Shown: positions 14,920-35,496, numbered from the stretch's first letter. The stretch: DNA of 36,792 bases from Dehalococcoidales bacterium (GCA_030606585.1 JAUWGD010000002.1:1-36792); one strand, 5' to 3'. The notes: generated by a model from the letters alone, not told the origin. Numbers and translations: made by a program.

Positions 14920-14950
14920 TTCAAATTAGATAATGTAAGTAGGTGAAAAA

Positions 14951-16210: not shown

Positions 16211-16232
16211 AATAAGATTAAAGGAGATAACG

Positions 16233-17711
16233 ATGAGCATACCTAAAGAAGCTTATCAGACACTGCAATCCATTGTCGGGCCCGAATGGGTTAGTGATGA
16301 CCCGGCCATCTGTGAAGCCGACCGCTACTGTAGTCTGTCCGACCCTACCGATGAAAAACGCCGGCCCGGATGCAGCATCGAGCCGTCCAGCACCGATGAG
16401 GTACAGGCTATCGTCAAAGTAGCCAACCGGTACAAGCTGCCCTTCGTGGTTACCAGTACTTTCTACAGTTCCGGTACCTACGCCAGGAAGGAAAACTCCA
16501 TCCTCATCGATTTGAAGCGGATGAATAAGCTCGAGATAGATGAGAAAAACCAGTACGCTATTGTCGAGCCGGGAGTGACCTTCTCCGCCCTTCAGGCAGA
16601 CCTGTTTAAGATGGGACTTTGTACCTTCGTGCCGGGATGCGGCGGCCAGGCTTCCGTCGTAGCCAATACGGTCAATATGGGTGATGCTCCTATCGGCTGG
16701 AGGCACGGCCTCGGTTATCAGCGGCTGCTGGGCGTCGAGTGGGTGCTGCCCGAGGGTGATATACTGAAGATGGGCTCGCTTTCAAATGCGAATGATTTCT
16801 TCTGGGGCGAGGGACCCGGTCCCGACCTGCGCGGTCTGCTGCGGGGATGCGCCGGCCACCAGTCGAAGCTCGGGATTATCACCCGGATTGGCGTCAAGGT
16901 ATTCCCCTTCATTTCCGAAGAGCTCGAACCGTCCGGCTGGTCATACCATACCACCATGATGTTACCGACCAACAGGTTTAAATGGTATAATATCCGTTTT
17001 TACTCCCACGAGGATATCATCAATGCCATGTTCGAAATAGGCCGGTGTGAGATAGCTCTGGTGGTAATGACGGTACCCCCGATATTCAGGGGTGTCGCCA
17101 GGAGCAGGGGTGTGGGCTGCGGCGGGTTCTGGGAGTACTGGAAGGAAGCGGGACCCAAGCTCGCGCGGAAGCAGGAAGACCTCAGGGTATTGCTGTATGG
17201 TATCGGTTCAGACAAACGCCTGGAATACGAAGAGAAGGTTTTGCTGGATATAGTCAAGGATTTCAACGGCTCGGCCCGTGAAGCGCCCTGCCAGGATGAA
17301 ACGAACTTCATGGCCGCCGATGCCATCTGCGCTAATGTCGTCGGGGGGAGGTTCGCTTCCGAGGTCTCTTACGAGTCCATCAACCAGGCCACGAGGTACA
17401 GCAAGGAAGTCGATAAAATAACGGACGCACATAGACCTCCGATATTGCAGGAATACAACACCACGGACTGGATTTGCCCTTATGAACTTGGATATGTCGC
17501 CAAGATGGAATGCCTGCGTATGGCGGCCGCTGAAGATAATTATGCGCTGCAGGAGTGGAAGCGCGACGTCGAGGTAGTCTGCGCCGAAAGAGGCGCTTAC
17601 GCACTGGTACCCAATAGTGACGTTTTCGGTCCCGTCTGGGGGAACTACCCTGAAAAAGAAGATAAAATCAGGGCAGCCTTTGACCCTAACCACGTTTCTT
17701 CTCCTGAATAG
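16233..17711 (+). CDS. FAD-binding PCMH-type oxidase family protein, trio copy 1 subunit B
   Basis: AAAGGAG RBS. Motifs: KEAYQTLQSIVGPEWVSDDPA, DEVQAIVKVANRYKLPF, MNKLEIDEKNQYAIVEPGVTF, LLGVEWVLPEGDILKMGS, GPGPDLRGLLRG. C-terminal IRAAFDPNHV. Confidence 0.75.
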   Translation: MSIPKEAYQTLQSIVGPEWVSDDPAICEADRYCSLSDPTDEKRRPGCSIEPSSTDEVQAIVKVANRYKLPFVVTSTFYSSGTYARKENSILIDLKRMNKLEIDEKNQYAIVEPGVTFSALQADLFKMGLCTFVPGCGGQASVVANTVNMGDAPIGWRHGLGYQRLLGVEWVLPEGDILKMGSLSNANDFFWGEGPGPDLRGLLRGCAGHQSKLGIITRIGVKVFPFISEELEPSGWSYHTTMMLPTNRFKWYNIRFYSHEDIINAMFEIGRCEIALVVMTVPPIFRGVARSRGVGCGGFWEYWKEAGPKLARKQEDLRVLLYGIGSDKRLEYEEKVLLDIVKDFNGSAREAPCQDETNFMAADAICANVVGGRFASEVSYESINQATRYSKEVDKITDAHRPPILQEYNTTDWICPYELGYVAKMECLRMAAAEDNYALQEWKRDVEVVCAERGAYALVPNSDVFGPVWGNYPEKEDKIRAAFDPNHVSSPE

Positions 17712-17738: not shown

Positions 17739-19205
17739 ATGTTAAAGACAGCGCGTGAGTATACAGAAAGTCTGCGCCAGCTGAAACTGAACCTTTATCT
17801 GCTTGGCGAAAAGGTCGAGGACTGGGTTGATGAACCCATCATCAAGCCGTCAACCAATGCGGTAGCCATGACCTACAAGCTCGCCCACGAACCCGAAAAC
17901 GAGGCCCTGGCCGTCACGGAGTCCATGCTCACGGGGAAGAAGGTCAACAGGTTCATCTCCCTCTTCAAGAGCCCCGACGATATGGTCAGAAAAATTAAAC
18001 TGCAGAGAGAGCTGGGGCAGAGGACGGCCTGCTGCTTCCAGAGGTGTGTCGGCATGGACGGCATCAATGCTACCTTCAGCACTACTTTTGAAATCGATGA
18101 GAAATTCGGTACCGATTATCACCAGAGGTTTAAAAAATGGCTCGAATATATCCAGGAGAATGACCTGACTGTTGCCGGGGCCATGACCGATGTCAAGGGA
18201 CACCGCGGCGTGGCGCCCAGCCAGCAGAAAGACCCGGATATGTTCGTCCACATCTCCGAACGCCGGGATGACGGTATCATCATCCGTGGGGGCAAGGCCA
18301 ATATCACCGGGACAATAAATTCGCACGAGATGCTGCTCATGCCCACCCTCAGGATGCGGGAGGACGATAAAGACTACGCCGTCTGCTGTGCGGTACCCAC
18401 CGATGCCAAAGGGATAACCCACATCTATGGCCGGCAGTCCTGCGACACCCGCAAGCTGGAGGAAGGCGATATTGATGTCGGTAACTACGGCTTCGGCGGA
18501 CAAGAGACCCTGACCGTCTTCGAGGATGTCTTCGTCCCCTGGGAACGGGTCTTCATGAGCGGCGAATATGATTTCGCCATCATGCTGGTGGAACGTTTCG
18601 CCGCCTATCACCGACAGAGCTACGGCGGCTGCAAACCCGGCATCGCCGATGTCCTCATCGGTGCCACCGCCTCCATGGCCGATTACAACGGTGTGCGCCG
18701 GGCGGCTCATATCAGGGAAAAAATCGGGGAAATGATTCACCTCTCCGAGACAATACACGCCTGCGGTCTTGCCAGTGCCCACGAGGCCTGGAAGACCAAG
18801 GCGGGTAACTACCAGGCTCATATACTCCTGGCTAATGTATGCAAGCACAATACGACCAGATTCCCCTACGAGATAACCCGGCTTGCCGAGGACATCGCCG
18901 GGGGCATACTGGTCACCACCCCCTCCGAGAAGGACTTCAGACACCCGGAGATAGGAAAAATTATTGACAAGTACCTTAAAGGCGACCCCGCTTACTCCAC
19001 GGAGGAACGCTATCGCATGCTGTCGCTTATACACGCCATGTGCTTTGGCGTGGTGGCGCCCAGTTATCATACCGAGTCGATGCATGGCGCCGGTTCGCCG
19101 CAGGCGCAAAAGATTATGATTGAGCGCGAGACAGACATGGAGGCTAAACAACGCTTTGCCCGCAGTATCGCGGGCATCGATACACGAGAAGACCCGCTCG
19201 GTTAA
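17739..19205 (+). CDS. abfD: 4-hydroxybutyryl-CoA dehydratase / vinylacetyl-CoA delta-isomerase
   Basis: 488 aa. Alignable end to end with my recollection of Clostridium aminobutyricum AbfD: VAMTYKLA, CCFQRCVGMDG, YIQENDLTVAGAMTD, IYGRQSCDTRK, VERFAAYHRQSYGGCK, LLANVCKHNTTRFPYEITRLAEDIAGG, TESMHGAGSPQAQKIMI. Cluster ligands are present: C99, C103, H291, C298. AAAAGGAGG RBS. Confidence 0.9.
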   Translation: MLKTAREYTESLRQLKLNLYLLGEKVEDWVDEPIIKPSTNAVAMTYKLAHEPENEALAVTESMLTGKKVNRFISLFKSPDDMVRKIKLQRELGQRTACCFQRCVGMDGINATFSTTFEIDEKFGTDYHQRFKKWLEYIQENDLTVAGAMTDVKGHRGVAPSQQKDPDMFVHISERRDDGIIIRGGKANITGTINSHEMLLMPTLRMREDDKDYAVCCAVPTDAKGITHIYGRQSCDTRKLEEGDIDVGNYGFGGQETLTVFEDVFVPWERVFMSGEYDFAIMLVERFAAYHRQSYGGCKPGIADVLIGATASMADYNGVRRAAHIREKIGEMIHLSETIHACGLASAHEAWKTKAGNYQAHILLANVCKHNTTRFPYEITRLAEDIAGGILVTTPSEKDFRHPEIGKIIDKYLKGDPAYSTEERYRMLSLIHAMCFGVVAPSYHTESMHGAGSPQAQKIMIERETDMEAKQRFARSIAGIDTREDPLG

Positions 19206-19227
19206 ACCCGGGAAAGGAGGCGACATT

Positions 19228-20421
19228 ATGTCTTACTTTCTGAGTCCTAAAAAAATCCTGTTCGGAAAAAACATGTTGAGGAGGTTGGGCGCCGAGCTTG
19301 AAGGCCGCGGCAATAAAGCCATTTTAATTACAGATAAAAACATGGTCAAGCTCAGCGGAGAACTTGTCGAGGCGGTCAAGGCTGCCGGATACGAGGTTAA
19401 TATCTGGGACGGAGCGGAGCCGGAACCTTCGACGGCGGGCGCCATCGAGGCCGGCAAGTTGCTAAAAGAGTTCAAACCCCAGCTGGTTATCGGGTTCGGC
19501 GGGGGTTCGGTGCTGGACACGGCCAAAGCAGCCTGGGTGCTCTATGAGAACGCGGAAATCGTCCCGGAAGAAATCACGTCCGTTAATGTAAAGTCAAAAC
19601 TGAGCCCGCAGAAGAAAGCCAGATTCATGACCGTCCCTACCACCAGCGGCACCGGCTCGGATGTCACCTGGGCTATCGTGCTCTCGGAGGCCGCCGAACA
19701 CCGCAAGGTTGGCTTCGCCAACACGGAAATAGTGCCCGATATTACGCTGCTGGTCCCCGAATTTACCGCCGGCATGCCCAGGGCGCTGACGGCCAGCACC
19801 GGTCTGGACGTTCTGGGGCACGCCCTCGACGGATACACCGCCAGGCAGCAGACCGATTTCAGTGACGGACTCTGCCTGCAGGCCATGAAGCTGGCCTTCG
19901 AGTGGCTTCCCAGGGCCTGCGCCAACGGAGAAGACCTCGTCGCCAGGGAGAAAATGCAGAACGCCGCCACCGTGGCCGGTCTGGGATTCGGCAACAGCAA
20001 TACCTCACTCTGCCATGCCCTGGCACATACGCTCGGTGCTACTTTTAACATACCTCACGGTCGCTCCGTAGGCATAACATTACCTTACTCGCTGGAATAT
20101 ATCGCCGCCAATCCCGCCATCGAGGGGGCTCCCGACCCGGTGGAGAGGCTCAGCACCGCCGCCAGATTTGCCGGTATTAAAGATGAATCAGACCAAGCAG
20201 CCATTAAAAAGCTGATTCAGAAATTAAGAGACCTGGCGAAGGAAACGGGTGAGCCGCTGAGCCTGAAGGAAGCCGGCATCACGGAACAGCAGATGAACGA
20301 TAACCTGGACACCCTGGTCACCCTCGCCGGCAACGATGTCAATATGTACTCCAGTCCCTGCGAATGCCAGGACGAGAAGCTCCGCCAGCTCTTCCAGGAC
20401 ATCTGGAAAGGGACGATTTAA
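19228..20421 (+). CDS. iron-containing (group III) alcohol dehydrogenase, candidate 4-hydroxybutyrate dehydrogenase
   Basis: From ORF 19120..20421, trimmed to the ATG at 19228, which follows GGAAAGGAGG (19211..19220). The upstream part of the ORF overlaps the abfD 3' end. Fe-ADH motifs: GFGGGSVLDTAKA, PTTSGTGS, and the metal-His region LCHALAHTLGATFNIPHG. Confidence 0.85.
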   Translation: MSYFLSPKKILFGKNMLRRLGAELEGRGNKAILITDKNMVKLSGELVEAVKAAGYEVNIWDGAEPEPSTAGAIEAGKLLKEFKPQLVIGFGGGSVLDTAKAAWVLYENAEIVPEEITSVNVKSKLSPQKKARFMTVPTTSGTGSDVTWAIVLSEAAEHRKVGFANTEIVPDITLLVPEFTAGMPRALTASTGLDVLGHALDGYTARQQTDFSDGLCLQAMKLAFEWLPRACANGEDLVAREKMQNAATVAGLGFGNSNTSLCHALAHTLGATFNIPHGRSVGITLPYSLEYIAANPAIEGAPDPVERLSTAARFAGIKDESDQAAIKKLIQKLRDLAKETGEPLSLKEAGITEQQMNDNLDTLVTLAGNDVNMYSSPCECQDEKLRQLFQDIWKGTI

Positions 20422-20546: not shown

Positions 20547-21407
20547 ATGCCTGTTTGCCAGGCTAACGGCATTAACATTAATTACAGGGTATATGGCGAG
20601 GGGTTCCCCCTGGTCTTAAGCCATCCCTTCTCAGCCAGCCTGGAGTTCTGGGCAAACCTGATTCAAAGCCTGCCGCCTCAATACCAGGTTATTGCCTATG
20701 ATGTCCGTGGCCACGGCCTGTCCTCAGCGCCGGCCGGGGAGGAGAATTACACTCTGGATATCCTCGTGGAAGACCTGCATCACCTGCTGGAACATTTAAA
20801 AATAGAGAAAGCTTATATCGGCGGCCTTTCGCTGGGCGGCGCCATATCGCTGGGTTACGCCGGCCGCCACCCCGAGACCGTAAAAGCCCTGCTTATCTTC
20901 GATATTCACGGCGGCTTTTCCCCGCCTGCCGACCCCGCTATGAAGGCCGCCATGGCCGAGGGGCGGGAAAAGGGTGAAAAGTACGCCATGGAAAGAGGCA
21001 TGGCCGATTTCGCCCGGCGGCAGCTTGCCACCGGGTCCGCTTTCCCCCCCGTCCCCGACGACGAAGCCCTTCAGGAGCAATACGTCGAAAGAATGGCAAA
21101 ATTCCCGGTTAACGGGTATATCGGCGTCGGCCGGGCCTCGCCCTGGGAAGAAGAATGGCAGCGCGAAGTGGCCGACAATGTGAGTGTAGCCACCCTGATA
21201 ACCGTCGGCAGCGACGACCTGCCCATGGTAGTATCGGGCACGAGTATATTACACGAGCACATCAAGGGTTCGCGCTACGTGGTGATAAAGGGCTCCGTTC
21301 ATGAAACGGCGCGGTGGCGCCCCGATGCATTCAATCAGGCTGTTATCGAGTTTCTCGATGCGGTAGAGGCGGGCAAACCGGTGGCGGGAGAAATGACCCT
21401 GGGCTAA
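20547..21407 (+). CDS. alpha/beta-fold hydrolase (3-oxoadipate enol-lactonase / C-C hydrolase-like)
   Basis: 286 aa. Motifs: INYRVYGEGFPLVLSHP, YDVRGHGLS, the nucleophile elbow GLSLGG, and a C-terminal His in GSVHE. AAGGAG RBS. Confidence 0.8.
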   Translation: MPVCQANGININYRVYGEGFPLVLSHPFSASLEFWANLIQSLPPQYQVIAYDVRGHGLSSAPAGEENYTLDILVEDLHHLLEHLKIEKAYIGGLSLGGAISLGYAGRHPETVKALLIFDIHGGFSPPADPAMKAAMAEGREKGEKYAMERGMADFARRQLATGSAFPPVPDDEALQEQYVERMAKFPVNGYIGVGRASPWEEEWQREVADNVSVATLITVGSDDLPMVVSGTSILHEHIKGSRYVVIKGSVHETARWRPDAFNQAVIEFLDAVEAGKPVAGEMTLG

Positions 21408-21518: not shown

Positions 21519-24158
21519 ATGGTACCGAATAACAGTAACCCCGGAAGAGCAGCCAAGGGTGAGAAAAGTGTTTGTAAAGGGCTTGGTTTCTGCTCGATAT
21601 CAGGGGACGCGAATTCCTCTGTCGTTGATGTCAAAGATGGAAAAATCGTCAGGATTAGACCGCTGCACTATGACTGGAAATATAAACCAGAAGAATTCAA
21701 CCCGTGGAAGATGGAGGCGCGCGGTCAGACTTTCGAGCCCAGCATGAAATCGTTAATCGGGCCTTTCAGCCTGGCTTACAAGAAGCGGGCTTTATCCCCC
21801 AACCGGATTCTGTATCCGCTAAAGAGAGTCGATTGGGACCCCAACGGAGAAAGAAATACCCAGAATCGCGGGAAGAGCGGCTATGTTAGAATCTCCTGGG
21901 ATGAAGCCCTGGATATAATCGCCAGCGAGATAAAGAGGTTAAATAATAAATACGGGCCTACCACCATACTTGCCCAGGCGGACGGTCACGGGGAGACAAA
22001 AACCGTACACGCCGCCCACGGCTGCCAGAGAAGGCTCCTCGACCTCCTGGGGGGATATACCATACAGATGAGGAACCCGGACAGCTGGGAGGGGTGGTAC
22101 TGGGGCGCCAAGCATACCTGGGGATGCGAAAACCTGGGCCAGATGTATCCTTTGACCAATGTGATACCGGATATTTGCGACCACTCGGAGGTTGTACTGT
22201 TCTGGGGCTGTGACATGGAGACCACCCCCTGGGGCTGGCAGGGACAGCTGCCCAGCCGGTTATGCTATTGGTTCACCGAGCTGGGAATAAAGCAGTTATA
22301 CATCTGCCCGGACCTCAACTACGGGGCGGCGGTCCATGCCGATAAATGGATACCCATTAGACCCAATACCGATGCCGCCATGCGCCTGGCCATAGCCTGG
22401 GTCTGGCTTACCGAAGGCACCTATGATAAAGAGTATATCAAGACACATGCCTTCGGATTCGACAAATTCGCGGATTACGTCCTGGGTAAGGAGGACGGGG
22501 TACCCAAGACACCCAGGTGGGCGGAAGACAAGTCCGGGGTTCCCTCCCGGATTATCAAAGCTCTGGCCAGGGAATGGGCCTCCAAAGCGACATCTATAGC
22601 GCACGGCAACGGCGGTTCCTCCATCAGGGGCCCTTACTCGACCGAACCCGCCAGGATTGAGGTCTTGCTGCTGGGCATGCAGGGACTTGGTAAGCCCGGC
22701 GCGCACTTTGTAAAAATGATTGAATGGGGCCTGTTCTTCGACCCGGGCTGGTATCCCATGCCCAGTCCCAAAGAGCTGCCGGACGTTAATGCCGCCGGCC
22801 ACGGGCAGCGGGTAGGCAGCCCGGCGGTGCAGAGGGGAGTGGCTGCTGATGGTGAAGAACTGGAGCATTTCCCCAAATCGTTCATACCCAAGACCCTCAT
22901 TCACGATGCCATCCTTAATCCTCCCCTCACCTGGTACGGTACCACCAGCGCCGGTTTCCCGCGCGACGACCAGTTTGTCCAGTATAAATACCCCGCCGAC
23001 GGTTGTGCTGAAATCCACATGATATGGTCCGATACGCCCTGCTTGCTGACATGCTGGAACGACAGCAACAGCGTCGCCAAAGCGTACCAGAGCCCGAAAA
23101 TCGAGTTCATGCTGGTGCAGCATCCCTGGATGGAGAACGACTGTCTCTTCGCCGATATCCTTCTGCCCGTCAATACCAAGTTCGAGGAAGAGGATATCGC
23201 CACGGATAACTTCAGCGGCCAGTTCAGTACCATCATGTATGAGGACCAATGCATTGAACCCAAAGGTGAGTCCAAGACCGACTACGAGGTAGTCTGTATG
23301 ATAGCCGAGAAGATGGGTCTGCTGAAAGAATACACCAGGGGCAGGTCAATAAAAGAGTGGATAAAGTTCGGCTTTGACCATGCGGAAATCTCCCCCGCGA
23401 TAAGCTATGAAGAACTAAAGGAGAAAGGCTATTTCGTTTTACCCACCGACCCGGACTGGAAGAAGAAAGAGGTCGGCTTGAGTGGTTTCGCTAAAGACCC
23501 GGTGAAAAACCCGCTGAATACTCCTTCCGGTAAGATTGAATTCTATTCCCAGAGTCTCGCGGAGCACTTCCCTGACGATGACGAGAGACCGCCGGTTCCC
23601 CACTGGATTGAAAAGGGCTCGGGCCACGATGAAAGCGTTTCCAGCGTCAGGACTAAAGACTACCCCCTGCTCATAATATCCAACCACGGCCGCTGGAGGG
23701 TGCATGCCAATCTCGATGATATCAGCTGGTTCCATGAAATCGAAACCTGTAAAGTCATCGGGGCGGACGGGTACCATTATGAGCCTATCTGGATTCACCC
23801 GACAGATGCTGAAGAGAGGGGCATCGCCCACGGAGACGTGGTTAACGTATTCAACGAGAGGGGCGGTGTTCTCGTGGGCGCTTACTTGACGGAGAGAATA
23901 ATGCCCGGCACTGTTTACGTAGACCACGGAGCCCGGTACGACCCGATAGTCGTCGGTGAGCTTGACAGGGGAGGCGCCATCAATACCATTTCCCCACACA
24001 GCATTACCTCCAGGAACTGCGCCGGGATGGCTACCAGCGGCTACCTGGTGGAAGTAGCGACCGTCGACCTGGACGAAATGAGGAGGCAGTACCCCGAAGC
24101 CTTCAACAGGCCGTACGATAAGGCTACCGGGCAACTTATAGAGCGAGTCATGGTTTAA
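21519..24158 (+). CDS. pyrogallol hydroxytransferase (transhydroxylase) large-subunit-like bis-MGD Mo enzyme, AthL / resorcinol-hydroxylase family
   Basis: 879 aa. No N-terminal Fe-S Cys motif and no Tat signal, as in AthL. Blocks match my recollection of P. acidigallici AthL: VDVKDGKIVRIRP, WKMEARGQTFEPS, DPNGERN, RISWDEALDIIASEIKRL, NPDSWEGWYWG, YDKEYIKTHAFGFDKFADYVLGKEDGVPKTPRWAEDKSGVPSRIIKALAREWA, CIEPKGESKTDYEV, TPSGKIEF, RGGAINTI. GGAGG RBS. Confidence 0.85.
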   Translation: MVPNNSNPGRAAKGEKSVCKGLGFCSISGDANSSVVDVKDGKIVRIRPLHYDWKYKPEEFNPWKMEARGQTFEPSMKSLIGPFSLAYKKRALSPNRILYPLKRVDWDPNGERNTQNRGKSGYVRISWDEALDIIASEIKRLNNKYGPTTILAQADGHGETKTVHAAHGCQRRLLDLLGGYTIQMRNPDSWEGWYWGAKHTWGCENLGQMYPLTNVIPDICDHSEVVLFWGCDMETTPWGWQGQLPSRLCYWFTELGIKQLYICPDLNYGAAVHADKWIPIRPNTDAAMRLAIAWVWLTEGTYDKEYIKTHAFGFDKFADYVLGKEDGVPKTPRWAEDKSGVPSRIIKALAREWASKATSIAHGNGGSSIRGPYSTEPARIEVLLLGMQGLGKPGAHFVKMIEWGLFFDPGWYPMPSPKELPDVNAAGHGQRVGSPAVQRGVAADGEELEHFPKSFIPKTLIHDAILNPPLTWYGTTSAGFPRDDQFVQYKYPADGCAEIHMIWSDTPCLLTCWNDSNSVAKAYQSPKIEFMLVQHPWMENDCLFADILLPVNTKFEEEDIATDNFSGQFSTIMYEDQCIEPKGESKTDYEVVCMIAEKMGLLKEYTRGRSIKEWIKFGFDHAEISPAISYEELKEKGYFVLPTDPDWKKKEVGLSGFAKDPVKNPLNTPSGKIEFYSQSLAEHFPDDDERPPVPHWIEKGSGHDESVSSVRTKDYPLLIISNHGRWRVHANLDDISWFHEIETCKVIGADGYHYEPIWIHPTDAEERGIAHGDVVNVFNERGGVLVGAYLTERIMPGTVYVDHGARYDPIVVGELDRGGAINTISPHSITSRNCAGMATSGYLVEVATVDLDEMRRQYPEAFNRPYDKATGQLIERVMV

Positions 24159-24204
24159 AAAGCTCCCGCTCGTTTTCCTAAAGTAAATACGGAACTTCCC
24201 CGCT

Positions 24205-24300
24205 GTCATTCCCGCGCAGGCGGGAATCCAGAGGAGGAGTGGTGGTCTGGATTCTCGGGTCAAGCCTTCAGGCTGACTCAGGCTGAAGCCCGAGAATGAC
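24205..24300. repeat. intergenic nested-palindrome (REP/MITE-like) element, GTCATTCCCGCG...GAGAATGAC type
   Basis: Outer: GTCATTC (24205..24211) with GAATGAC (24294..24300). Hairpin: CCCGC-gcag-GCGGG (24211..24224). Further pairs: GAATCCAGA (24224..24232) with TCTGGATTC (24246..24254), and CTCGGG (24254..24259) with CCCGAG (24289..24294). Confidence 0.7.
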
Positions 24301-24333
24301 ATTATAAGACTATCTCGGTGAGGTATAACGGGA

Positions 24334-24906
24334 ATGATACTCATTATCGGAATAACCGGGGCTTCCGGGGTGATATACGGCATCCGGCTGCTCGAGGTGT
24401 TATCGTCCAATAAAGAAGTGGAAACACACCTCATCATTTCTGAAGTCGGAGAAGAAATTATAAGGCATGAGACCGATTGGCCGCCGGAACGGGTGAGAGC
24501 GCTGGCGGATGTCTGTTATGACATTAACGATATCGGCGCCAGGCTTGCCAGCGGCTCGTTTAAGAAGGACGGAATGGTGATTGCTCCCTGCAGCATGAAG
24601 ACCCTTTCGGCACTGGCGAACTCATACACGGACAACCTGCTTACCCGCGCCGCCGATACAGCCCTCAAGGAGCGGAAAAGGCTGGTCTTACTGGCGAGAG
24701 AGACCCCGCTTCACCTGGGTCACCTGAGAAACATGGTAAAGCTGACGGAGATGGGTGCTATCGTCTTCCCGCCGATTCCCGCCTTTTATCATAAGCCGAA
24801 AACAATCCGGGACCTGGTTGACCACACCGTAGGTAAGGTCCTGGATGTATTCGACATCAAGCATGAACTCTTCAAAAGGTGGGACGGCCTGGACAGCGAT
24901 GATTAG
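24334..24906 (+). CDS. ubiX: flavin prenyltransferase UbiX (prFMN synthase)
   Basis: 190 aa. Motifs: MILIIGITGASGVIYGIRLLEVL, MVIAPCSMKTLSALANSYTDNLLTRAADTALKERKRLVL, ARETPLHLGHLRNM. Confidence 0.9.
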   Translation: MILIIGITGASGVIYGIRLLEVLSSNKEVETHLIISEVGEEIIRHETDWPPERVRALADVCYDINDIGARLASGSFKKDGMVIAPCSMKTLSALANSYTDNLLTRAADTALKERKRLVLLARETPLHLGHLRNMVKLTEMGAIVFPPIPAFYHKPKTIRDLVDHTVGKVLDVFDIKHELFKRWDGLDSDD

Positions 24907-24920: not shown

Positions 24921-25358
24921 TTAGCGCTTAAGCAGCGAGTCCAGTTTTTCCAGTCGGCTTGCCCTTTTCCTGACTACCAATGTAAACACCCTGGGAACAT
25001 CCGCCATCAGAGACCTTGATTGTTCGGCTGCGTCCGTATAGAACTGGATAATCGTCTTTTCTATCTCAACAGCCTGTTTCAAGAAATCGGCGTAGCCTGT
25101 TCCTTCTTTTATCGCCGTTTTCAGGGAATATTCATCCGGATCTATATTGAAAGCGAAACAACCCTCGATGGCATCGGTGATAACTCCGTAGTATGCCCTC
25201 TCCACCTGTACGATATTTTTCTTGTTTTCCCTGGCAAAAGAGAGCCAAATCTCGGCATCTTCGGCACTCTGCTGAGCCAGATTCTCGTAGAATTCCGCCG
25301 AGTCATTTTCAAGTTTCCTGGAGAAGGTGATGCCCTCAGAAGCCGTATGTAATATCAT
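24921..25358 (-). CDS. hypothetical protein, possible ferritin/rubrerythrin-like four-helix bundle without obvious di-iron ligands
   Basis: 145 aa. Starts 19 nt after the mmsA-like stop, with a GGGGG RBS. The repeated helical pattern (SAEFYENLAQQ..., IEKTIIQFYTDAAEQ) resembles ferritin-like domains. I cannot find the ExxH pairs. Confidence 0.4.
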   Translation of the reverse strand: MILHTASEGITFSRKLENDSAEFYENLAQQSAEDAEIWLSFARENKKNIVQVERAYYGVITDAIEGCFAFNIDPDEYSLKTAIKEGTGYADFLKQAVEIEKTIIQFYTDAAEQSRSLMADVPRVFTLVVRKRASRLEKLDSLLKR

Positions 25359-25377
25359 TTATAGTAAACCCCCGTTA

Positions 25378-26871
25378 TTAAAACCACCTTTGAATAACAA
25401 CCTTGCTTTCCGTAAAGAAGCGCACCGCTTCCCTGCCCTGCGTGTGCAACACACCGTAGAATGAGTCCTTCATGCCGCTAAAGGGGAAGAAGGCCATTGG
25501 CGCGACGATACCGATGTTGATACCAACATTACCGCTATCGATGTTGTATTGAAACTCCCGGGCGCTTTTCCCACTAGACGTAAAGATAGAGTTGCCGTTG
25601 CCAAACGCATTGTCATTGCTAATCTCTATGGCTTCATCAAGGTCTTTCACCCGCATAATGGACATTACCGGCCCGAAGATTTCCTCGGAGCCTATTTTCA
25701 TATCCGGTTTGACGTCCTCGAAGACAGTCGGACCGAGAAAACACGTTTCCGGGTAGTCGCCAACAATCTTGATATTTTCCCTGCCGTCGAGCCTGAGTTT
25801 CGCCCCCTGTTTGATACCGCTCTCTATATATTGAATGATTCTATCCTTTTTCTCTTTATCGCGCACCGGCCCCATTTGCACCGATTCATCGAGTCCGTAG
25901 CCAACCCTTATGCTCTTGATTTGTTCGATAACCCTGTCCACAAAATTCTTGTAGAAGGCGTCGTCTTCACCGACGATGACAGCGTTGGCGGCCGATAAGC
26001 ACCGCTGCCCGGCATTGCCGAAAAACGAGGTCATCATGGCTATTACGGTCCTATCTACATCGCAGTCGGGCATGATGGTCATGAAGTTCTTGGCGCCGCA
26101 TTGAGCGATAACCCTTTTGCCCGTCTCACCGCATCTCTTATAAATAACGTCTCTTCCGGTGGGGGTTGAGCCGACAAATGTTATGCCGACGATGTCCGGG
26201 TGCTCCAGCATACTGTTCACCACGCTTCTGCCGCCATGCACCATATTCCATACCCCCGGCGGGAATCCGGCTTCTTCTGCCAGTTCCGTCAGCTTGGTTT
26301 GACTGTTGGGGACTTCGCTGGAGGGTTTTACTATCACGCAGTTTCCGGTAGCCACGGCGTACGGCGCCGACCACAGCGGAATCATGAAAGGAAAGTTAAA
26401 GGGACCTATGATACCGAAAACTCCCAGGGGGGTGGGAATTACAAACTCGTCAATGCCGTGAGCAATATCCTCCGAATAATATCCCTGCATCAGGGTGGGG
26501 ATGCCACAGGCAACCTCCACGTTTTCGATACCGCGCCGGGTCTCGCCCCTCGATTCATCAATGGTCTTGCCGTGTTCCTGTGTCTGAATTCGGCTTACTT
26601 CTTCAAAATTCTCTTCCAGCAGCTCTTTCAGTCGGTAGAGATATCTCGCTCTGGCTACCGGCGTCGTCCTTCGCCAGTCTGGGAAGGCTGCTTTAGCCGC
26701 TTCTACGGCGGCATCCATTTCTTCCCCGGTCGAGATGGGTACTTTAGCAATCGTCTGGTAAGTAGCGGGGTTTACCACATCTATGATTTCACCCTTGGAT
26801 TCCACCCACTCGCCGTCAATATAATTTTTAAGTGTTCTGACCTCTTTAATCGGTTCTTCCAGAAGAGCCAT
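25378..26871 (-). CDS. mmsA: CoA-acylating methylmalonate/malonate-semialdehyde dehydrogenase (ALDH family, MmsA/IolA type)
   Basis: 497 aa. Blocks match my recollection of B. subtilis IolA: YIDGEWVESKGEIIDVVNPAT, GETRRGIENVEVACGIP, GPFNFPFMIPLWSAPYAVATGNCVIVKPS, GAKN, AGQRC (catalytic Cys), PMAFFPFSGMKDSFYG. GAGGAGG RBS. Confidence 0.85.
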   Translation of the reverse strand: MALLEEPIKEVRTLKNYIDGEWVESKGEIIDVVNPATYQTIAKVPISTGEEMDAAVEAAKAAFPDWRRTTPVARARYLYRLKELLEENFEEVSRIQTQEHGKTIDESRGETRRGIENVEVACGIPTLMQGYYSEDIAHGIDEFVIPTPLGVFGIIGPFNFPFMIPLWSAPYAVATGNCVIVKPSSEVPNSQTKLTELAEEAGFPPGVWNMVHGGRSVVNSMLEHPDIVGITFVGSTPTGRDVIYKRCGETGKRVIAQCGAKNFMTIMPDCDVDRTVIAMMTSFFGNAGQRCLSAANAVIVGEDDAFYKNFVDRVIEQIKSIRVGYGLDESVQMGPVRDKEKKDRIIQYIESGIKQGAKLRLDGRENIKIVGDYPETCFLGPTVFEDVKPDMKIGSEEIFGPVMSIMRVKDLDEAIEISNDNAFGNGNSIFTSSGKSAREFQYNIDSGNVGINIGIVAPMAFFPFSGMKDSFYGVLHTQGREAVRFFTESKVVIQRWF

Positions 26872-27015: not shown

Positions 27016-28689
27016 CTATTCATCGGGGTCGTCCAGGGTGCGGTAATAGCCATCACCAAGGTCATTGGGGTTAAAGGTCTCCTTAAACTTGCGCTGGTAG
27101 CGGAACGCCTCCGGCTGCGCCGCCGACCCGAGTATGCGGTCGCGAATTTCCTTGGGAGTTGTATAGCCGTCGGTCCACCTGGCGTAATCGTTCATCTTTT
27201 CCATACCGGGACCAAGGCCTTTTTCCGCGCCGTACTTGGCGGTGGCGTTAAAGAATTCAAATGTCCCTTCCGTTGACGCCTTATCAGCCGGGTCGAAATG
27301 GGTGAAGTTCTCCCAGAGGGAGTGACCCCCGCCTCCCATGCCGCCTATTCCTCCCATCATGCCGTCGCCACCACAGGCGACAACATTACCCTTCTTCTCC
27401 CATTCAACCTTGAATGCCGTTACCTGCTCGACACGCGCCGGTTCGCCTGAAGTCCCGAAGTCCGGCGTGCCTCCCAGTCCGAAACAGCCGTCGTAGCCGC
27501 CTCCAAATACGAGGTTCAGATTCTTGTGTCCCAACCTTATCATGTAGAGGAGCGACCAGTTGAACAGGTCGGGTTCCAGCATTGCCTTTACCTTCCAGCC
27601 TCCGGTCTCTTCCAGTATCTTATCCAGTGCTTTGTCCTGCCATTCGATATCGCCCGGGGTCATGCCCGCCAGGACAATCTGGTAATCGCGCTTCATGTCC
27701 TCGGTCATTTTCTGCACTTCCGGGTCTTTCAGCAGTTCTTCAATATCGGAAAGCGTCCTGGTGGGGTCGGACAGTATCCTGACCATGGCGCCCTTCAGGT
27801 CTCTGCCGAACATGTTGAACTGCCGGTGAGCGACGTAACCGATTCCCGAATCGAATATCATGTAACAGGAATCAGCCCAGGCCTTCCAAGATGGAAAGCC
27901 CAGAGTATATGCCCTTAAATTATCCGGCAGTACCGCTTTATAGGCGGGCGGTTTACCCTCGACGGGGAGGGTTGCCGGTCCGGGCCAGGGGTAGAGCTTG
28001 ATGGCACACTTGGTGAATACGCCCATCGCCCCGTTCGTCCCCACCATTCCTCTGACGAGTCCTTTCAGGCTGGGTCCCGGTCCGTCACAGCAGAACCAGC
28101 CCAACCCGGAGCCCACAGAGCCTATCTTCAGGATTTCACCGTCAGGCATGACCCATTCCACCCCAAGCAGATTCTCATTGTGGTGACCCATGTAAAGCGT
28201 ATCCGGCCCGAGTCCTCCCAGAGCGGTAGCGCTGGCGAGGCAGGAACAGCTGGCGCCGGGCCCGTGTATATGGGTATTCAGTCCCACCTTCATGGCTTCG
28301 GCCTGAAGCGTCGCCCCGATGACATGGGGCTCAACCACGGCATAATTGTTTTTATCATCGATTTCCAGGATTTTATCCATCCGCCTCATATCCAGCTGGA
28401 TGGTGTCATCCTCCAGAGGAAACCCCCAGGCCGACCAGAACGTACTGGAGGGTTTAAATTTTACCTTGTATTTGTTGCATACCTTGACGATGCCCTGAAC
28501 CTCTTCGGCGCTTCCCGGCAGCAGGACAGCGGCACCCCTGGGTGTGTATACACGGTAATAAGGGCCAATATGAATGGCGGTATGAGACAGCGGGTACCGG
28601 TAACAATCCAGCAGCGCCGGGTCGTCGGATATATACTCCTTGCCTACGACTTCCTCTAATTCCCGATAGGCTTCTTTCGCTAACGCCAT
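27016..28689 (-). CDS. FAD-binding PCMH-type oxidase family protein, trio copy 2 subunit B' (557 aa)
   Basis: Paralogue of 16233..17711. Shared motifs: KEAYRELEEVVGKEYISDDPA, EEVQGIVKVCNKYKVKF, MDKILEIDDKNNYAVVEPHV, LLGVEWVMPDGEILKIGS, GPGPSLKGLVRG. C-terminal FKETFNPNDL. Confidence 0.75.
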   Translation of the reverse strand: MALAKEAYRELEEVVGKEYISDDPALLDCYRYPLSHTAIHIGPYYRVYTPRGAAVLLPGSAEEVQGIVKVCNKYKVKFKPSSTFWSAWGFPLEDDTIQLDMRRMDKILEIDDKNNYAVVEPHVIGATLQAEAMKVGLNTHIHGPGASCSCLASATALGGLGPDTLYMGHHNENLLGVEWVMPDGEILKIGSVGSGLGWFCCDGPGPSLKGLVRGMVGTNGAMGVFTKCAIKLYPWPGPATLPVEGKPPAYKAVLPDNLRAYTLGFPSWKAWADSCYMIFDSGIGYVAHRQFNMFGRDLKGAMVRILSDPTRTLSDIEELLKDPEVQKMTEDMKRDYQIVLAGMTPGDIEWQDKALDKILEETGGWKVKAMLEPDLFNWSLLYMIRLGHKNLNLVFGGGYDGCFGLGGTPDFGTSGEPARVEQVTAFKVEWEKKGNVVACGGDGMMGGIGGMGGGGHSLWENFTHFDPADKASTEGTFEFFNATAKYGAEKGLGPGMEKMNDYARWTDGYTTPKEIRDRILGSAAQPEAFRYQRKFKETFNPNDLGDGYYRTLDDPDE

Positions 28690-28707
28690 GTCTCAATCCT
28701 TCCCTTG

Positions 28708-29979
28708 TTAGATTGCCTGTTTTACGAGGTTGGTAACATCAAAGACCTTCATCTTGTCGCCCGATGTATTGATGGCATCCTTAAAATTCATCTCACACCA
28801 CGGGCAGGCGCTTACTATCGCCTCAGCGCCGGTGGCCTTCGCCTCCTCAATCCTTTCAGTAGCCGTCCAGTTGGAGAAGTCGGGATAGGTTTCTCTTGTT
28901 CCGCCGCCGGCGCCGCAGCACCAGGCATACTCCCTGATTCTTTCCATTTCCACCAGCTCTATGCCGGGGATACTCTTAAGCACATCTCGCGGCGGGTCAT
29001 AGACACCCCAGGCCCCGTTATACCTGGGTTTTTTAGGCTCATAAATTACTATCTGGTTTTTGATTTTCTTCTCTTTGCCTTCCCAGGGTACGTACGGCTC
29101 TCCACGCCTGCCCAGGTGGCAGGGGTCGTGGTAGGTAACGCGCATTGGTACGGTCTTGCTGAATTTAAGCTTGCCTTCCTTAATCAGGCGGTCGTAATAC
29201 TGCACGGTATGGAGAATCTCGAACTTCGCCCCCAGGGGGGGATAAAGGCGGTTAAAGGCATGATAGCAATCGGCGCAGGGGGTTACCACCGTCTTAACAC
29301 CGGCGGCAGTCCAGGCCTTGATGGTATTTTCCGCCAGCCTGGTGAACTCTTCTTTATAGCCCATGTCATAGGCTCTACCGCCGCAACAGGGCTCGTTTTC
29401 TCCCATGATTCCGATATCAACACCGGCATTCTTTAGAATGGTTACGGCCGTCCGGGCCGTTTCCTGAAGTTCTTCATCGTAGCTGAACCGGCAGCCGGCG
29501 TGGAAGAGAACTTCCGCCGACTCTCCGGGAACGCGCTTGATGTCCAAGCCTTCAGCCCAGTCGCCGCGTCCGGCCGCGGGTTTCTCCATCATGTTGTTTT
29601 CTTTGCGGAGATGTTCGATAAGGGCCGTATGCTGCGGCAGTACCTGGCCATCCTCAACCAGCCTGAATTTTAACTCATGTATCATTTCCAGCGGTTCCAG
29701 GTTGTAGCGGCAAATTTTATCGGAAACGTCACAGGACCCGCAGGTCGTGCATTTATAAACTATATCTACTACCCTATCGGAATAAGTGCTCTGGCCGTTC
29801 AGGAGTGACAGGGCGACGGCATACCTGCCGCGCGCGGAGTAACTCAGGAAATTATTATAGGCTATACTGGGACAGCCTTTGGCAAACCTCCAACTCTTTA
29901 CCTGGTCAAATGGAATCCATTTACAATACGAGCACTGGCTGCACCTTTCCATATCAGCTTTATAGTCTTCTAGCGCCAC
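28708..29979 (-). CDS. (Fe-S)-binding protein with two intact CCG domains (HdrD/GlcF-like), trio copy 2
   Basis: GTG start at 29979, consistent with the N-terminal length of the paralogue. CSQCSYCK and CTTCGSCD motifs. CCG domain 1: AGCRFS, EPCCGG, TPCADC. CCG domain 2: YHDPCHLGR, AWCCGAGGG, SACPWC. Confidence 0.8.
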   Translation of the reverse strand: MALEDYKADMERCSQCSYCKWIPFDQVKSWRFAKGCPSIAYNNFLSYSARGRYAVALSLLNGQSTYSDRVVDIVYKCTTCGSCDVSDKICRYNLEPLEMIHELKFRLVEDGQVLPQHTALIEHLRKENNMMEKPAAGRGDWAEGLDIKRVPGESAEVLFHAGCRFSYDEELQETARTAVTILKNAGVDIGIMGENEPCCGGRAYDMGYKEEFTRLAENTIKAWTAAGVKTVVTPCADCYHAFNRLYPPLGAKFEILHTVQYYDRLIKEGKLKFSKTVPMRVTYHDPCHLGRRGEPYVPWEGKEKKIKNQIVIYEPKKPRYNGAWGVYDPPRDVLKSIPGIELVEMERIREYAWCCGAGGGTRETYPDFSNWTATERIEEAKATGAEAIVSACPWCEMNFKDAINTSGDKMKVFDVTNLVKQAI

Positions 29980-30013
29980 TTTCTAATGCCTTCTTTCTTT
30001 GTTTCTCTTGCGC

Positions 30014-35201: not shown

Positions 35202-35346
35202 TTTTATTTACCTCCTGTACGCTCTCTGCAGGTTATCCAGACTCAGCGCCTGCCCATTTTCTGGCAGGCAATACCGCTAATGCTCCGAGGTCCGGGATAA
35301 AACGCTCTCCATGGGTAAAACAACTTGTTACATCGCCCTTGTCAGA

Positions 35347-35465: not shown

Positions 35466-35496
35466 CTGTCCATTTCCAATAAAGGCTTAAGCCTTT

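Follow-up and report, generated by a model that had tools for sequence, protein, structure and literature searches.

Gene content of the locus

The window, meaning the whole 36,792-nt stretch of Dehalococcoidales DNA that was analysed (GCA_030606585.1 JAUWGD010000002.1:1-36792), contains a gene island in which an AthL-family catalytic subunit, hereafter alpha, is surrounded by genes for CoA-dependent and decarboxylating enzymes (Table 1). The alpha open reading frame begins with ATG and encodes 879 aa. As initially annotated, no gene for a BthL-type beta subunit lies beside it and the next gene is ubiX; its upstream neighbour encodes an alpha/beta hydrolase. AbfD carries CFQRC and YHRQSYGGC segments identical to those of 1u8v, and UbiX scores above the cutoffs of both its families (NF004685, 277.8 bits, cutoff 188; TIGR00421, 264.8 bits, cutoff 108.9). 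Specific family cutoffs are not reached by UbiD, the M24 hydrolase or lyase, the flavoprotein or the GlcD-like triplets.

Table 1. Features of the window, in order of position.
Feature	Position (nt)	Strand	Basis
N-terminus (41 aa) of BthL-type three-cluster beta, cut by window edge	1..125	-	Identity to relatives' betas
CocE/NonD-family (S15) hydrolase; followed by alpha, beta in relatives, by beta here	231..1934	-	Family search, relatives' loci
Acetylene-hydratase-like/catechol-dehydroxylase-like Mo/W enzyme, own [4Fe-4S] motif, 734 aa	1959..4163	-	2e7z, E 1.8e-126
MarR-family regulator between two divergent gene sets	4252..4851	+	Family search; same layout in L059, L166
DUF35 (OB/ChsH2) protein and SCP-x-type thiolase pair	5022..6716	+	Family searches
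Two acyl-CoA dehydrogenases	6826..9153	+	Family searches
M24 (creatinase/prolidase/DddP-like) hydrolase or lyase	9237..10457	+	Family searches
Soluble fumarate/urocanate-reductase-like flavoprotein (FAD_binding_2)	10508..11905	+	Pfam and family searches
Acetyl-CoA hydrolase/transferase-family CoA-transferase	11968..13329	+	Pfam, family search
GlcD-like, CCG/Fer4, FAD_binding_4 triplet, first copy	13459..17711	+	Pfam, family search
4-Hydroxybutyryl-CoA dehydratase/vinylacetyl-CoA isomerase (AbfD)	17739..19205	+	1u8v, E 2.2e-197
Fe-dependent alcohol dehydrogenase, probable start ATG 19228, 397 aa as homologues	19228..20421	+	Pfam, homologues
Alpha/beta hydrolase (enol-lactonase-like), directly upstream of alpha gene	20547..21407	+	Pfam, family search
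Alpha: AthL-family Mo/W-bisPGD catalytic subunit, beta-less clade of uncharacterised subfamily	21519..24158	+	Pfam, PDB, model, homologues
Ser189 codon (AGC)	22083..22085	+	Aligned with AthL Ser175, presumed Mo ligand
Clade-specific loop insertion, residues ~428-450, helix 435-443 in model	22800..22868	+	Alignments, model
Structured spacer of 175 nt, alpha gene to ubiX	24159..24333	+	Sequence analysis
ubiX (flavin prenyltransferase, 190 aa)	24334..24906	+	Pfam, NCBIfam
Conserved 145-aa protein (no Pfam match) and CoA-acylating (methyl)malonate-semialdehyde dehydrogenase	24921..26871	-	Family searches
FAD_binding_4, CCG/Fer4, GlcD-like triplet, second copy	27016..31477	-	Family search
UbiD-family decarboxylase of unassigned subfamily, likely client of UbiX	32370..33824	-	Family searches
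URO-D/MtaA-like protein and TRAP solute-binding protein (DctP)	33867..36690	-	Family searches

The initial annotation had noted ubiX rather than a beta gene after alpha. Among the loci of relatives (numbered L, from a genome set and a metagenome set), those closest to alpha form a clade of 74–88% identity, and within this clade ubiX adjoins alpha at about half of the loci. It follows alpha directly in the window, L003, L005, L085, L091 and L130 but not in L001, L002/L089, L004/L082/L083/L088, L084, L086 or L087, which indicates a variable operon junction rather than a substitution. The spacer between the two genes, with 14-nt terminal inverted repeats (24204-24217 and 24288-24301), is an element missing at the other loci. 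UbiX most plausibly serves the nearby UbiD, as a variable accessory of it. The decarboxylase is encoded downstream on the opposite strand, as had been stated, and a UbiD lies near the clade in four other arrangements (L002, L003, L130 and L090). A close relationship of this UbiD to gallate or protocatechuate decarboxylases was rejected on its scores. AroY-type chains reached about 95 bits, compared with 205 for the best-scoring UbiD chain, and the VdcC match of 275 bits falls short of the cutoff of 650.

The reported lack of phloroglucinol-pathway genes was upheld. No SDR, cyclase-family (PF04199) or BKACE protein is present among the 28 proteins called in the window, and the gaps are too small to hide one. 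The phloroglucinol reductase PGR is taken here to be an SDR and TAL (triacetate lyase or aldolase) a BKACE enzyme, with PF04199 presumably denoting the cyclase family. The assignment of the dihydrophloroglucinol cyclohydrolase DPGC to the cyclase family and the abbreviation SDR follow PMC10470551.

Family, metal site and constraint of alpha

Pfam identified AhtL-like_1st (PF21423), Molybdopterin (PF00384) and Molydop_binding (PF01568) in alpha. No Molybdop_Fe4S4 domain (PF04879) or FS0 [4Fe-4S] motif was found in the protein by Pfam and no twin-arginine motif at its N-terminus, in line with the initial annotation, and the N-terminal cysteine pair C19 and C25 is not kept among relatives. Alpha has no Fe-S domain. 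More than 6400 homologues were found. Among solved structures the closest is AthL (4v4c_A, E 9e-146), aligned over query residues 35-853 and 4v4c_A residues 17-871, and the AlphaFold model (pLDDT 87.9) matches 4v4c_A with a TM of 0.85, which bears out the claim of an alignment along the whole length. Identity to AthL is 39%, with a long branch between the two. Alpha is a Ser-ligated, cytoplasmic member of the AthL/RhL branch of the DMSO-reductase superfamily, with a Mo (or W) bis-pyranopterin centre.

A cytoplasmic S- or N-oxide reductase of the BisC/DorA kind, working as a lone polypeptide that takes its electrons straight from NAD(P)H or a small carrier and resembling AthL through shared ancestry only, is a very improbable alternative. 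JGI labels homologues 'S/N-oxide reductase-like', and alpha matches DMSO reductase (E about 1e-78, TM 0.78) and TIGR00509 bisC_fam; the 368 bits of the latter match, however, fall far under its cutoff of 1017, and AthL scores 490 bits against 267 for the best S/N-oxide reductase. The AthL-specific first domain is present in alpha, and a BthL-type beta accompanies about 60% of the subfamily. The 'SYGW' segment of DMSO reductase, which we take to contain the oxo-binding Tyr and Trp that precede the Ser ligand, aligns with 'ADGH' in alpha as it does in AthL. The best NCBIfam match of the M24 neighbour is the DMSP lyase DddP, but weakly, at 83 bits where 600 are required.

The NPDSWEGW block occupies residues 186-193 of alpha, and Ser189 aligns with AthL Ser175, as initially counted; the latter is reported to be the Mo ligand (Messerschmidt et al. 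2004). Residues H157, D188 and W190 align with AthL H144, D174 and W176. Around this conserved centre the AthL pocket has been lost. Y152 and R153 of AthL, missing throughout the subfamily, are replaced by A165 and A166, and alpha and all 90 of its aligned relatives have lost the W354 insert, the ~32-residue loop bearing Y400 and Y404 and the insert that follows Y560. Tyr152, Arg153, Trp354, Tyr404 and Tyr560 presumably form the pyrogallol/tetrahydroxybenzene (cosubstrate) pocket of AthL; their identities were confirmed in the 4v4c sequence. Orthology to the pyrogallol transhydroxylase was rejected on the 39% identity together with this subfamily-wide loss.

Phylogenetic comparison qualifies the AthL kinship first proposed, as alpha falls in a separate, large and uncharacterised subfamily spanning Dehalococcoidia, Actinomycetota, Firmicutes and Desulfobacterota. 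Alpha clusters inside it in a neighbour-joining tree and shares its identity range (55-88%), its HG(T/C/N)xxH...NPDSWEGWYWG signature and its deletions relative to AthL. Alpha retains every one of the 208 alignment columns whose conservation reaches 95% or more in 102 beta-adjacent relatives and 333 of the 342 at the 80% level, a retention above the mean of the beta-adjacent members themselves, and only four clade-specific changes, all conservative, were found. Since it retains all subfamily-conserved positions, alpha is judged intact and functional. The clade-specific loop insertion is missing in beta-adjacent relatives, such as the alpha of L168, and could reflect a changed quaternary structure.

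Beta subunits in cis and in trans

A BthL-type beta adjoins about 60% of 172 subfamily alphas. Of the 144 with sufficient flank about 29% lack a neighbouring beta, 30 of them having none anywhere in the locus and 12 only a distant one, so that the term 'orphan' used in the initial annotation was an overstatement. In the clade of the window no locus has an adjacent beta, none of about 12 loci has one within 6-10 kb, and in L001, L082/L083 and L084 none was found within 10 kb; a further alpha from the genome of L001, on a separate contig (L167), likewise lacks one. Because it recurs at every clade locus, the missing cis beta is not an assembly quirk.

The only ferredoxin-type CxxCxxCxxxC reading frames in the window are one CCG protein and the beta-like N-terminus at its edge. 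This fragment is identical at 41 of 41 residues to a 272-aa beta directly after an AthL-like alpha in L102, and at 40 of 41 to its counterparts in L114 and L168, against only 11 of 22 for ferredoxins behind acetylene-hydratase-like (AH-like) genes. The beta-like gene had been noted 21 kb away in another operon; it is indeed of the AthL-partner type, but lies in the divergent half of the same island. Where L168 and L059 have the order hydrolase-alpha-beta, the window has hydrolase-beta. In the sister locus L006 a beta lies 3.3 kb downstream, among pathway genes, and in the Dehalococcoidales arrays L008, L010, L041 and L102 alphas outnumber betas, which therefore appear to be shared.

The explanation that best fits the whole, put forward tentatively, is that alpha, as the Ser-ligated AthL/RhL-branch subunit of a catabolic island, still acts as part of an alpha-beta hydroxylase with a trans-encoded BthL-type beta. 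The gene at the window edge, itself without the upstream cis alpha seen in relatives, would be the candidate. Counting against this reading are the loci that show no beta within 10 kb and the clade's loop insertion. Against the pairing itself, that beta may serve an alpha beyond the edge, a beta-alpha gene order occurring in L102, L114 and L008, or it could serve the AH-like enzyme; the conserved columns, moreover, need not cover the alpha-beta interface.

It is also possible, if doubtful, that alpha is truly independent of beta, a single-subunit catalyst whose reaction at the Mo centre is redox-neutral overall and would therefore need no electron wire. The enzyme would transfer hydroxyl between substrates, or hydrate or dehydrate a cyclic intermediate able to enolise. 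The transhydroxylase catalyses a redox-neutral reaction overall, and its beta clusters are not known to have a catalytic role. Consistent with such independence are the dearth of betas around the clade, a minimal cluster amid housekeeping genes in L082/L083 (DUF35-thiolase and alpha-flavoprotein), and the single-subunit DorA, TorA and MtsZ as nearest structural relatives after AthL. The loop insertion points the same way, but its association with beta absence was not replicated in the metagenome set. Constraint on alpha, moreover, is not relaxed relative to beta-dependent relatives, a BthL-type beta without its usual cis alpha is present in the same island, and the missing cosubstrate pocket argues against AthL-style transhydroxylation between two phenols.

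A third arrangement, judged unlikely, would split the transhydroxylase, with the AthL-like hydroxylase and the AH-like (catechol-dehydroxylase-like) enzyme sharing one BthL-type beta such that electrons set free by ring hydroxylation at one Mo centre drive reductive dehydroxylation at the second, hydroxyl groups being moved with no external redox partner. The AH-like enzyme is not an acetylene hydratase, because the catalytic Asp13 is replaced by His, and its gene, the hydrolase and beta form one gene string in the window. AH-like genes lie within 6-10 kb of subfamily alphas at 14 of 81 loci in the genome set and at roughly 8 of 80 in the metagenome set, among them L024, L069, L042, L061 and L103, where AH-like, alpha and beta share one operon. 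The basis of this arrangement is gene neighbourhood, however, in genomes rich in Mo enzymes; AH-like genes elsewhere have their own 194-aa ferredoxin (L103 and L118), and alpha occurs without any AH-like gene in L001, L084 and L082.

Conserved operon and relation to known systems

The alpha clade is one gene of a breakdown operon conserved across uncultured sediment Dehalococcoidales. Its order, ACAD-ACAD-M24-flavoprotein-CoA-transferase-(GlcD/CCG/FAD triplet)-AbfD-FeADH-(hydrolase)-alpha, is also found in L001, L002, L003, L085, L091 and L130; L084 holds two tandem alphas within it and L006 a partial version. The conserved partners of alpha are thus CoA-dependent aliphatic enzymes ending in AbfD, which the initial annotation had missed. 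Its observations at the locus were otherwise confirmed and its interpretation holds in part: a phenolic-acid route is plausible, but the detailed sequence gallate to pyrogallol to phloroglucinol is unsupported.

An aromatic-acid front end is plausible from the TRAP binding protein, the URO-D/MtaA-like protein and the UbiD and UbiX of the island. A carboxylated phenolic or heteroaromatic substrate would be taken up via TRAP, trimmed by the CocE/NonD esterase and the URO-D/MtaA-like protein, and decarboxylated by UbiD with prFMN from UbiX. The AthL-like enzyme would then add or relocate a ring hydroxyl at its Ser189-Mo centre, with oxygen from water or substrate and His157 and Asp188 as putative acid/base groups. 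The ring would finally be reduced, hydrolysed and cleaved as CoA esters by the flavoprotein, alpha/beta hydrolase, CoA-transferase, acyl-CoA dehydrogenases and DUF35-thiolase, giving acetyl-CoA and a C4 unit that 4-hydroxybutyryl-CoA dehydratase would convert to crotonyl-CoA.

AthL-like genes are known from the Chloroflexi/marine Dehalococcoidia genomes RBG-2, RBG-1351 and DEH-C11, in which multiple 'pyrogallol hydroxytransferase' copies were read as catabolism of meta-hydroxylated aromatics (PMC3971608, PMC4959651). In the relevant passages of these reports alpha-beta 'complexes' are described or copies merely counted, with no mention of a beta-less clade, the AbfD operon or loss of the AthL pocket.

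The type III DMSO reductases DorA, TorA, BisC and MtsZ (TM 0.76-0.79) are the next-best structural relatives of alpha and share with it the Ser ligand and the lack of an Fe-S cluster and of a beta, BisC being cytoplasmic as well. They differ in scoring about half as many bits as AthL and in the 'SYGW' segment, whereas alpha has the AthL-type N-terminal domain and belongs to a subfamily whose members mostly have a beta. AthL of Pelobacter acidigallici (4V4C), the best match by sequence and fold, has in common with alpha a four-domain Mo-bisPGD architecture with AthL-type first domain and no FS0 cluster, a cytoplasmic location, and NPDSWEGW with its Ser ligand and a His and Asp beside the metal. 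Unlike AthL, alpha lacks both a neighbouring BthL and genes of the phloroglucinol pathway, and stands in a CoA-dependent, AbfD-centred operon.

RhLS (Azoarcus/Aromatoleum anaerobium) and DbhLS (Thauera aromatica AR-1) are likened to alpha by description rather than by sequence, as members of the Ser-ligated RhL/PgtL family, for whose PgtL 'Ser' coordination is stated (PMC10100899). Both are encoded as alpha-beta pairs, unlike the alpha of the window, and their downstream pathway (hydroxybenzoquinone to acetate and malate) has no counterpart there. Resorcinol hydroxylase (RhLS) and 3,5-dihydroxybenzoate hydroxylase (DbhLS) are water-dependent and lead meta-dihydroxy aromatics into the hydroxyhydroquinone route, and the subsequent decarboxylation of the DbhLS product fits the UbiD/UbiX neighbourhood of alpha.

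An AthL-family catalytic subunit with a replaced substrate pocket

The catalytic (alpha) gene begins at an ATG preceded by a GGAGG-like site, and its product possesses an AthL-like first domain followed by molybdopterin and dinucleotide-binding domains. A Pfam scan found no Fe4S4 domain in the protein, and no twin-arginine motif is present. Among all solved structures, the best match was AthL, the large subunit of pyrogallol hydroxytransferase from Pelobacter acidigallici (4v4c_A; E 9e-146, 490 bits, query residues 35–853 aligned with chain residues 17–871), with DMSO and TMAO reductases ranking after it at ~265 bits. An AlphaFold2 model generated with 61 sequences in the input (pLDDT 87.9, pTM 0.89) superposed on the AthL chain with a TM of 0.85, and on DMSO reductase, MtsZ and TorA with TM of 0.76–0.79. 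That alpha is a BisC-like S/N-oxide reductase, the reading to which these lower scores relate, is considered highly improbable. Within the NPDSWEGW block (residues 186–193), Ser189 (codon AGC) aligns with AthL Ser175, and Asp188, His157 and Trp190 pair with AthL Asp174, His144 and Trp176. The initial annotation, which had described an AthL-like alpha with a Mo-ligand serine block, no Fe-S or Tat motif and ubiX as its neighbour, was right in every checkable detail. Cys19 and Cys25 were considered as the remnant of an FS0 cluster and ruled out, being unconserved even among close relatives. The exact protein has no record in the assembly index.

At E ≤ 1e-30, alpha has over 6400 homologues in the database; the best is 87% identical, hundreds are at ~65%, and those carrying organism names are from Chloroflexi or Dehalococcoidales. 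Scans for related loci in species-representative genomes and in metagenomes each returned at least ~600 matching stretches. Among the matches listed, the best genome loci were from Dehalococcoidales/Dehalococcoidaceae MAGs (88%), and more distant subfamily members (55–62%) were from Actinomycetota (including Gordonibacter and Adlercreutzia), Sporomusa acidovorans, Peptococcaceae, Syntrophomonadaceae and Desulfobacterota. In the cultured relatives Sporomusa acidovorans and Desulfospira, the loci show only a pair of alpha and Fe-S subunit (beta) genes with a sigma-54 regulator, transporters or transposases.

In an alignment of 90 full-length relatives with the AthL sequence from the 4v4c match, AthL was 39% identical to the window alpha and sat on a long branch in the tree. 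His144, Asp174, Ser175 and Trp176 of AthL are kept by every aligned subfamily member. AthL Tyr152/Arg153 are replaced by Ala/Gly/Pro-type residues in every member, with or without a beta gene, and all members lack a three-residue insert at Trp354, a ~32-residue loop carrying Tyr400/Tyr404 and a nine-residue insert after Tyr560. The residues Tyr152, Arg153, Trp354, Tyr400/Tyr404 and those of the Tyr560 region make up the pocket for pyrogallol and its cosubstrate, roles reportedly assigned in Messerschmidt's 2004 crystal-structure paper on AthL; the identities and numbers of these residues agree with the 4v4c sequence. The comparison shows alpha to be a Mo/W-bisPGD enzyme on the AthL/RhL branch that has a Ser ligand, retains the His/Asp pair and has other residues in place of the AthL pocket. 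Judged from sequence, it belongs to the AthL/RhL family but does not match the pyrogallol transhydroxylase, since the pocket residues and segments are absent and AthL is only 39% identical. The RhL/PgtL family has been recognised in superfamily phylogenies (PMC10100899).

Features of the window
Feature	Position	Strand	Size or detail
Beta fragment	125..1	-	41 residues
CocE/NonD hydrolase and beta string	1..1934	-	105-nt gap before beta
Acetylene-hydratase-like (AH-like) enzyme	1959..4163	-	734 aa
M24 protein	9237..10457	+	
First GlcD/CCG/FAD_binding_4 triplet	13459..17711	+	
4-Hydroxybutyryl-CoA dehydratase (AbfD)	17739..19205	+	
Fe-alcohol dehydrogenase, mechanical ORF	19120..20421	+	TTG start; ATG at 19228
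Alpha	21519..24158	+	879 aa
Alpha Ser189 codon	22083..22085	+	
Alpha-ubiX spacer element	24204..24301		~100 nt
ubiX	24334..24906		
Conserved protein	24921..25358	-	145 aa
Second GlcD/CCG/FAD_binding_4 triplet	27016..31477	-	
Chagasin-family (I42) inhibitor	31793..32275	+	
TRAP binding protein	35497..36690	-	

Distribution of the beta subunit

Six-frame ORFs of 160 loci were queried with the window proteins and with a profile for the BthL-type beta, consisting of Fer4_11 and a C-terminal CarboxypepD_reg-like domain. The census took in 172 subfamily alphas, for which beta was adjacent in 102, present only at a distance in 12, missing from the locus in 30 and undecidable owing to contig ends in 28. 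In a neighbour-joining tree the window alpha groups with those of L002, L003, L001 and L004, with L006 as sister, and the metagenome loci L086–L091 and L130 fall in the same clade; none of these loci (L001–L004, L006, L086–L091, L130) has an adjacent beta. The lack of a beta gene is genuine, extends across the clade and is not unusual. In Dehalococcoidales loci, arrays of the kind alpha-beta-alpha-alpha-beta (L008, L010, L041, L102) are common, so that alphas outnumber betas there.

The columns conserved among the 102 beta-adjacent alphas were used as the reference for constraint. The window alpha keeps all 208 columns that are ≥95% conserved (100%; beta-adjacent mean 98.5%) and 333 of the 342 that are ≥80% conserved (97.4%; beta-adjacent mean 94.3%), with only four clade-specific substitutions, all conservative. 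This retention, with so few clade-specific changes, means that alpha is functional, and nothing in the alignment suggests release of any conserved surface from selection. A pseudogene or decaying relic is ruled out by the intact ORF and the full retention of conserved positions. The clade does carry an insertion of 15–20 residues at ~428–450, modelled with a helix at 435–443. Insertions at this loop were found in 0/54 beta-adjacent and 12/23 non-adjacent alphas of the genome set (p 4e-8), but in 5/48 and 5/19, respectively, of an independent metagenome set (p 0.13), and L096 and L098 combine an insertion of the L011 type with a neighbouring beta gene. The loop was therefore dropped as a general signature of beta-less alphas; the window-type insertion alone is clade-specific, a clade marker and no general sign of beta independence.

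At the left edge of the window, the beta fragment is identical at 41/41 residues to the N-terminus of a 272-aa beta directly 3' of an AthL-like alpha (L102), and at 40/41 to the betas of L114 and L168. Only 11/22 residues are identical to the 194-aa ferredoxins that follow AH-like genes (L103, L118). The fragment is thus of the AthL-partner type, and is unlikely to be the partner of the window's AH-like enzyme, whose counterparts elsewhere have ferredoxins of this other type. In the window beta follows the CocE/NonD hydrolase gene, and given the hydrolase-alpha-beta order of relatives (L168, L059), it lacks the usual upstream cis alpha. The island contains both an alpha that has no cis beta and a beta that lacks the cis alpha normally found upstream of it. 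The string of AH-like gene, hydrolase and beta is divergent from a MarR gene and a long plus-strand operon, and this MarR-centred layout recurs in L059 and L166.

The AH-like protein, a Mo/W enzyme, is closest to acetylene hydratase (2e7z, E 1.8e-126); its FS0 cysteines and the Cys that ligates the metal are intact. The catalytic Asp13 of acetylene hydratase is replaced by His, so the protein is not an acetylene hydratase; its family includes gut catechol dehydroxylases. Such genes lie within 6–10 kb of AthL-like alphas in ~22 of 160 loci. A 'split transhydroxylase', in which alpha and the AH-like enzyme share the one beta, is considered improbable.

Our tentative preference is that alpha uses beta in trans, although the beta-alpha order of L102, L114 and L008 means that the window beta may have another client. 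Genuine independence of alpha from beta is a possibility to which we give somewhat less credence. The closest loci retain both of the paralogous triplets, in each of which a GlcD-like flavoprotein is joined by a CCG/Fer4 iron-sulfur protein and a large FAD_binding_4 protein. The first triplet, which directly precedes alpha in L084 and L006, could be an alternative electron module.

The conserved operon and the UbiD/UbiX pair

A recurrent gene string is present in the window, L001, L002, L003, L085, L091 and L130. It runs from two acyl-CoA dehydrogenases through an M24 protein, a soluble fumarate/urocanate-reductase-like flavoprotein and a CoA-transferase (acetyl-CoA hydrolase/transferase family), often a GlcD-like/CCG-FeS/FAD_binding_4 triplet, an HpaB-domain protein and an Fe-alcohol dehydrogenase, and often an alpha/beta hydrolase, to alpha. 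The HpaB-domain protein is AbfD (1u8v, E 2.2e-197), with identical CFQRC and YHRQSYGGC segments. Two tandem alphas stand mid-string in L084, the string is partial in L006, and a minimal version (L082/L083/L088, 74% identity) consists only of a divergent DUF35-thiolase pair, alpha and a 516-aa flavoprotein amid housekeeping genes. The convergent strand of the window and its closest relatives encodes a conserved 145-aa protein, a CoA-acylating (methyl)malonate-semialdehyde dehydrogenase (520.9 bits, cutoff 448.5), the second triplet, UbiD, a URO-D/MtaA-like protein and a TRAP binding protein.

The 145-aa protein, which has no Pfam or NCBIfam match, lies beside the aldehyde dehydrogenase in L002, L003, L005, L085, L089 and L091. 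Among curated families, the operon-conserved M24 protein scores highest with the DMSP lyase DddP, over almost its whole length but at only 83 bits (cutoff 600), and PDB DddP chains score like prolidases. The mechanical ORF of the Fe-alcohol dehydrogenase has a TTG start overlapping abfD; a start at the internal ATG, which has GGAGG before it, yields the 397 aa shared by all homologues. The chagasin-family (I42) peptidase-inhibitor gene, a lone plus-strand gene within the minus-strand operon, is present in L003 and absent in L002. Residues 26–77 of the TRAP binding protein form a low-complexity acidic/proline-rich N-terminal linker, with a spurious PARP match; this linker may serve as a tether of the lipoprotein type, as in monoderm Chloroflexi.

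The gene after alpha encodes a UbiX-family prenyltransferase scoring above curated cutoffs. It is directly 3' of alpha in the window, L003, L005, L085, L091 and L130 and not in L001, L002/L089, L004/L082/L083/L088, L084, L086 or L087, its position being the junction of two convergent operons. A UbiD gene faces ubiX in L130, and in L090 UbiD adjoins a 68%-identical alpha in another arrangement. Given this variable position and the two UbiD arrangements, UbiX is best read as the supplier of the UbiD cofactor, and the pair as a recurrent, non-obligatory companion of the alpha clade. The initial emphasis on ubiX in the place of beta holds for gene order; as a substitute for beta, UbiX is not supported by a junction that varies.

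The window UbiD clears the cutoff of the general family model alone (VdcC 275 bits, cutoff 650) and scores ~95 bits against protocatechuate decarboxylase chains, the best chain reaching 205, so its assignment as a gallate or hydroxybenzoate decarboxylase is unsupported. The window contains no classical phloroglucinol genes. The gallate-pyrogallol-phloroglucinol logic first proposed is only partly supported: it keeps the recurrent UbiD/UbiX pair in its favour and loses the decarboxylase assignment, the AthL pocket and the phloroglucinol genes. In L166 (6850..10224) and L001 (12761..13546), a short-chain dehydrogenase (254–261 aa) near the island adjoins URO-D/DctP or TRAP permease genes. It could be a ring reductase similar to phloroglucinol reductase; the window lacks a counterpart.

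The 175-nt spacer between alpha and ubiX folds at -67 kcal/mol (z -2.9), and includes an element that is bounded by 14-nt inverted repeats and has hairpins inside. Rfam gave no family match anywhere in the window, this element included, and the element has neither a further copy in the window nor a counterpart in orthologous loci. It may represent a small insertion (MITE/REP-like), or else a structure for transcript processing or termination.

Proposed role and relation to known pathways

Earlier work already described AthL-like genes in Chloroflexi and marine Dehalococcoidia and interpreted them as serving the catabolism of pyrogallol or meta-hydroxy-aromatics (PMC3971608, PMC4959651). Relative to the literature found, three points appear to be new: the loss of the AthL pocket in the expanded subfamily, the lack of a cis beta in a stable clade, and the tie of that clade to an AbfD-centred operon; the search returned no paper tying Dehalococcoidia, 4-hydroxybutyryl-CoA dehydratase and molybdoenzymes together. 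In sediment Dehalococcoidia the AthL-like genes rank with the most expanded of all molybdoenzyme genes, and papers on these genomes routinely annotate them as 'pyrogallol degradation', an annotation that is probably wrong in detail given an expanded subfamily lacking the AthL substrate pocket. In at least one stable clade, alpha has also become separated from its beta gene and now belongs to a CoA-dependent operon that ends in 4-hydroxybutyryl-CoA dehydratase. This gene set offers a concrete, testable basis for the breakdown of phenolic or related cyclic compounds by uncultured Dehalococcoidia, and the clade is a natural test case for the old question of the purpose of the Fe-S beta in transhydroxylase-type enzymes.

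The loci show the alpha clade to be stably linked to a CoA-dependent pathway with 4-hydroxybutyryl-CoA dehydratase and a malonate-semialdehyde-type dehydrogenase, and recurrently to UbiD/UbiX, a URO-D-like protein, a TRAP protein, a CocE/NonD esterase and an AH-like enzyme. The step we infer for alpha is the addition or relocation of a hydroxyl group, its substrate being a phenolic or enolisable cyclic intermediate delivered by the upper enzymes; the ring would then be reduced, hydrolysed and cleaved to acetyl-CoA and a C4 unit. Such an outcome would recall hydroxyhydroquinone degradation by Desulfovibrio inopinatus, the products of which are reportedly 'acetate plus a C4 compound'. A broader proposal, which we regard as speculative and rather unlikely, is that the AthL-family enzymes without a beta in Dehalococcoidales from marine and estuarine settings are a new kind of Mo hydroxyl-transfer or hydration catalyst, acting solo or sharing one BthL-type electron wire with an AH-like dehydroxylase. 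They would open an undescribed anaerobic ring-degradation route ending in 4-hydroxybutyryl-CoA dehydratase, and not in the phloroglucinol, hydroxybenzoquinone or benzoyl-CoA pathways.
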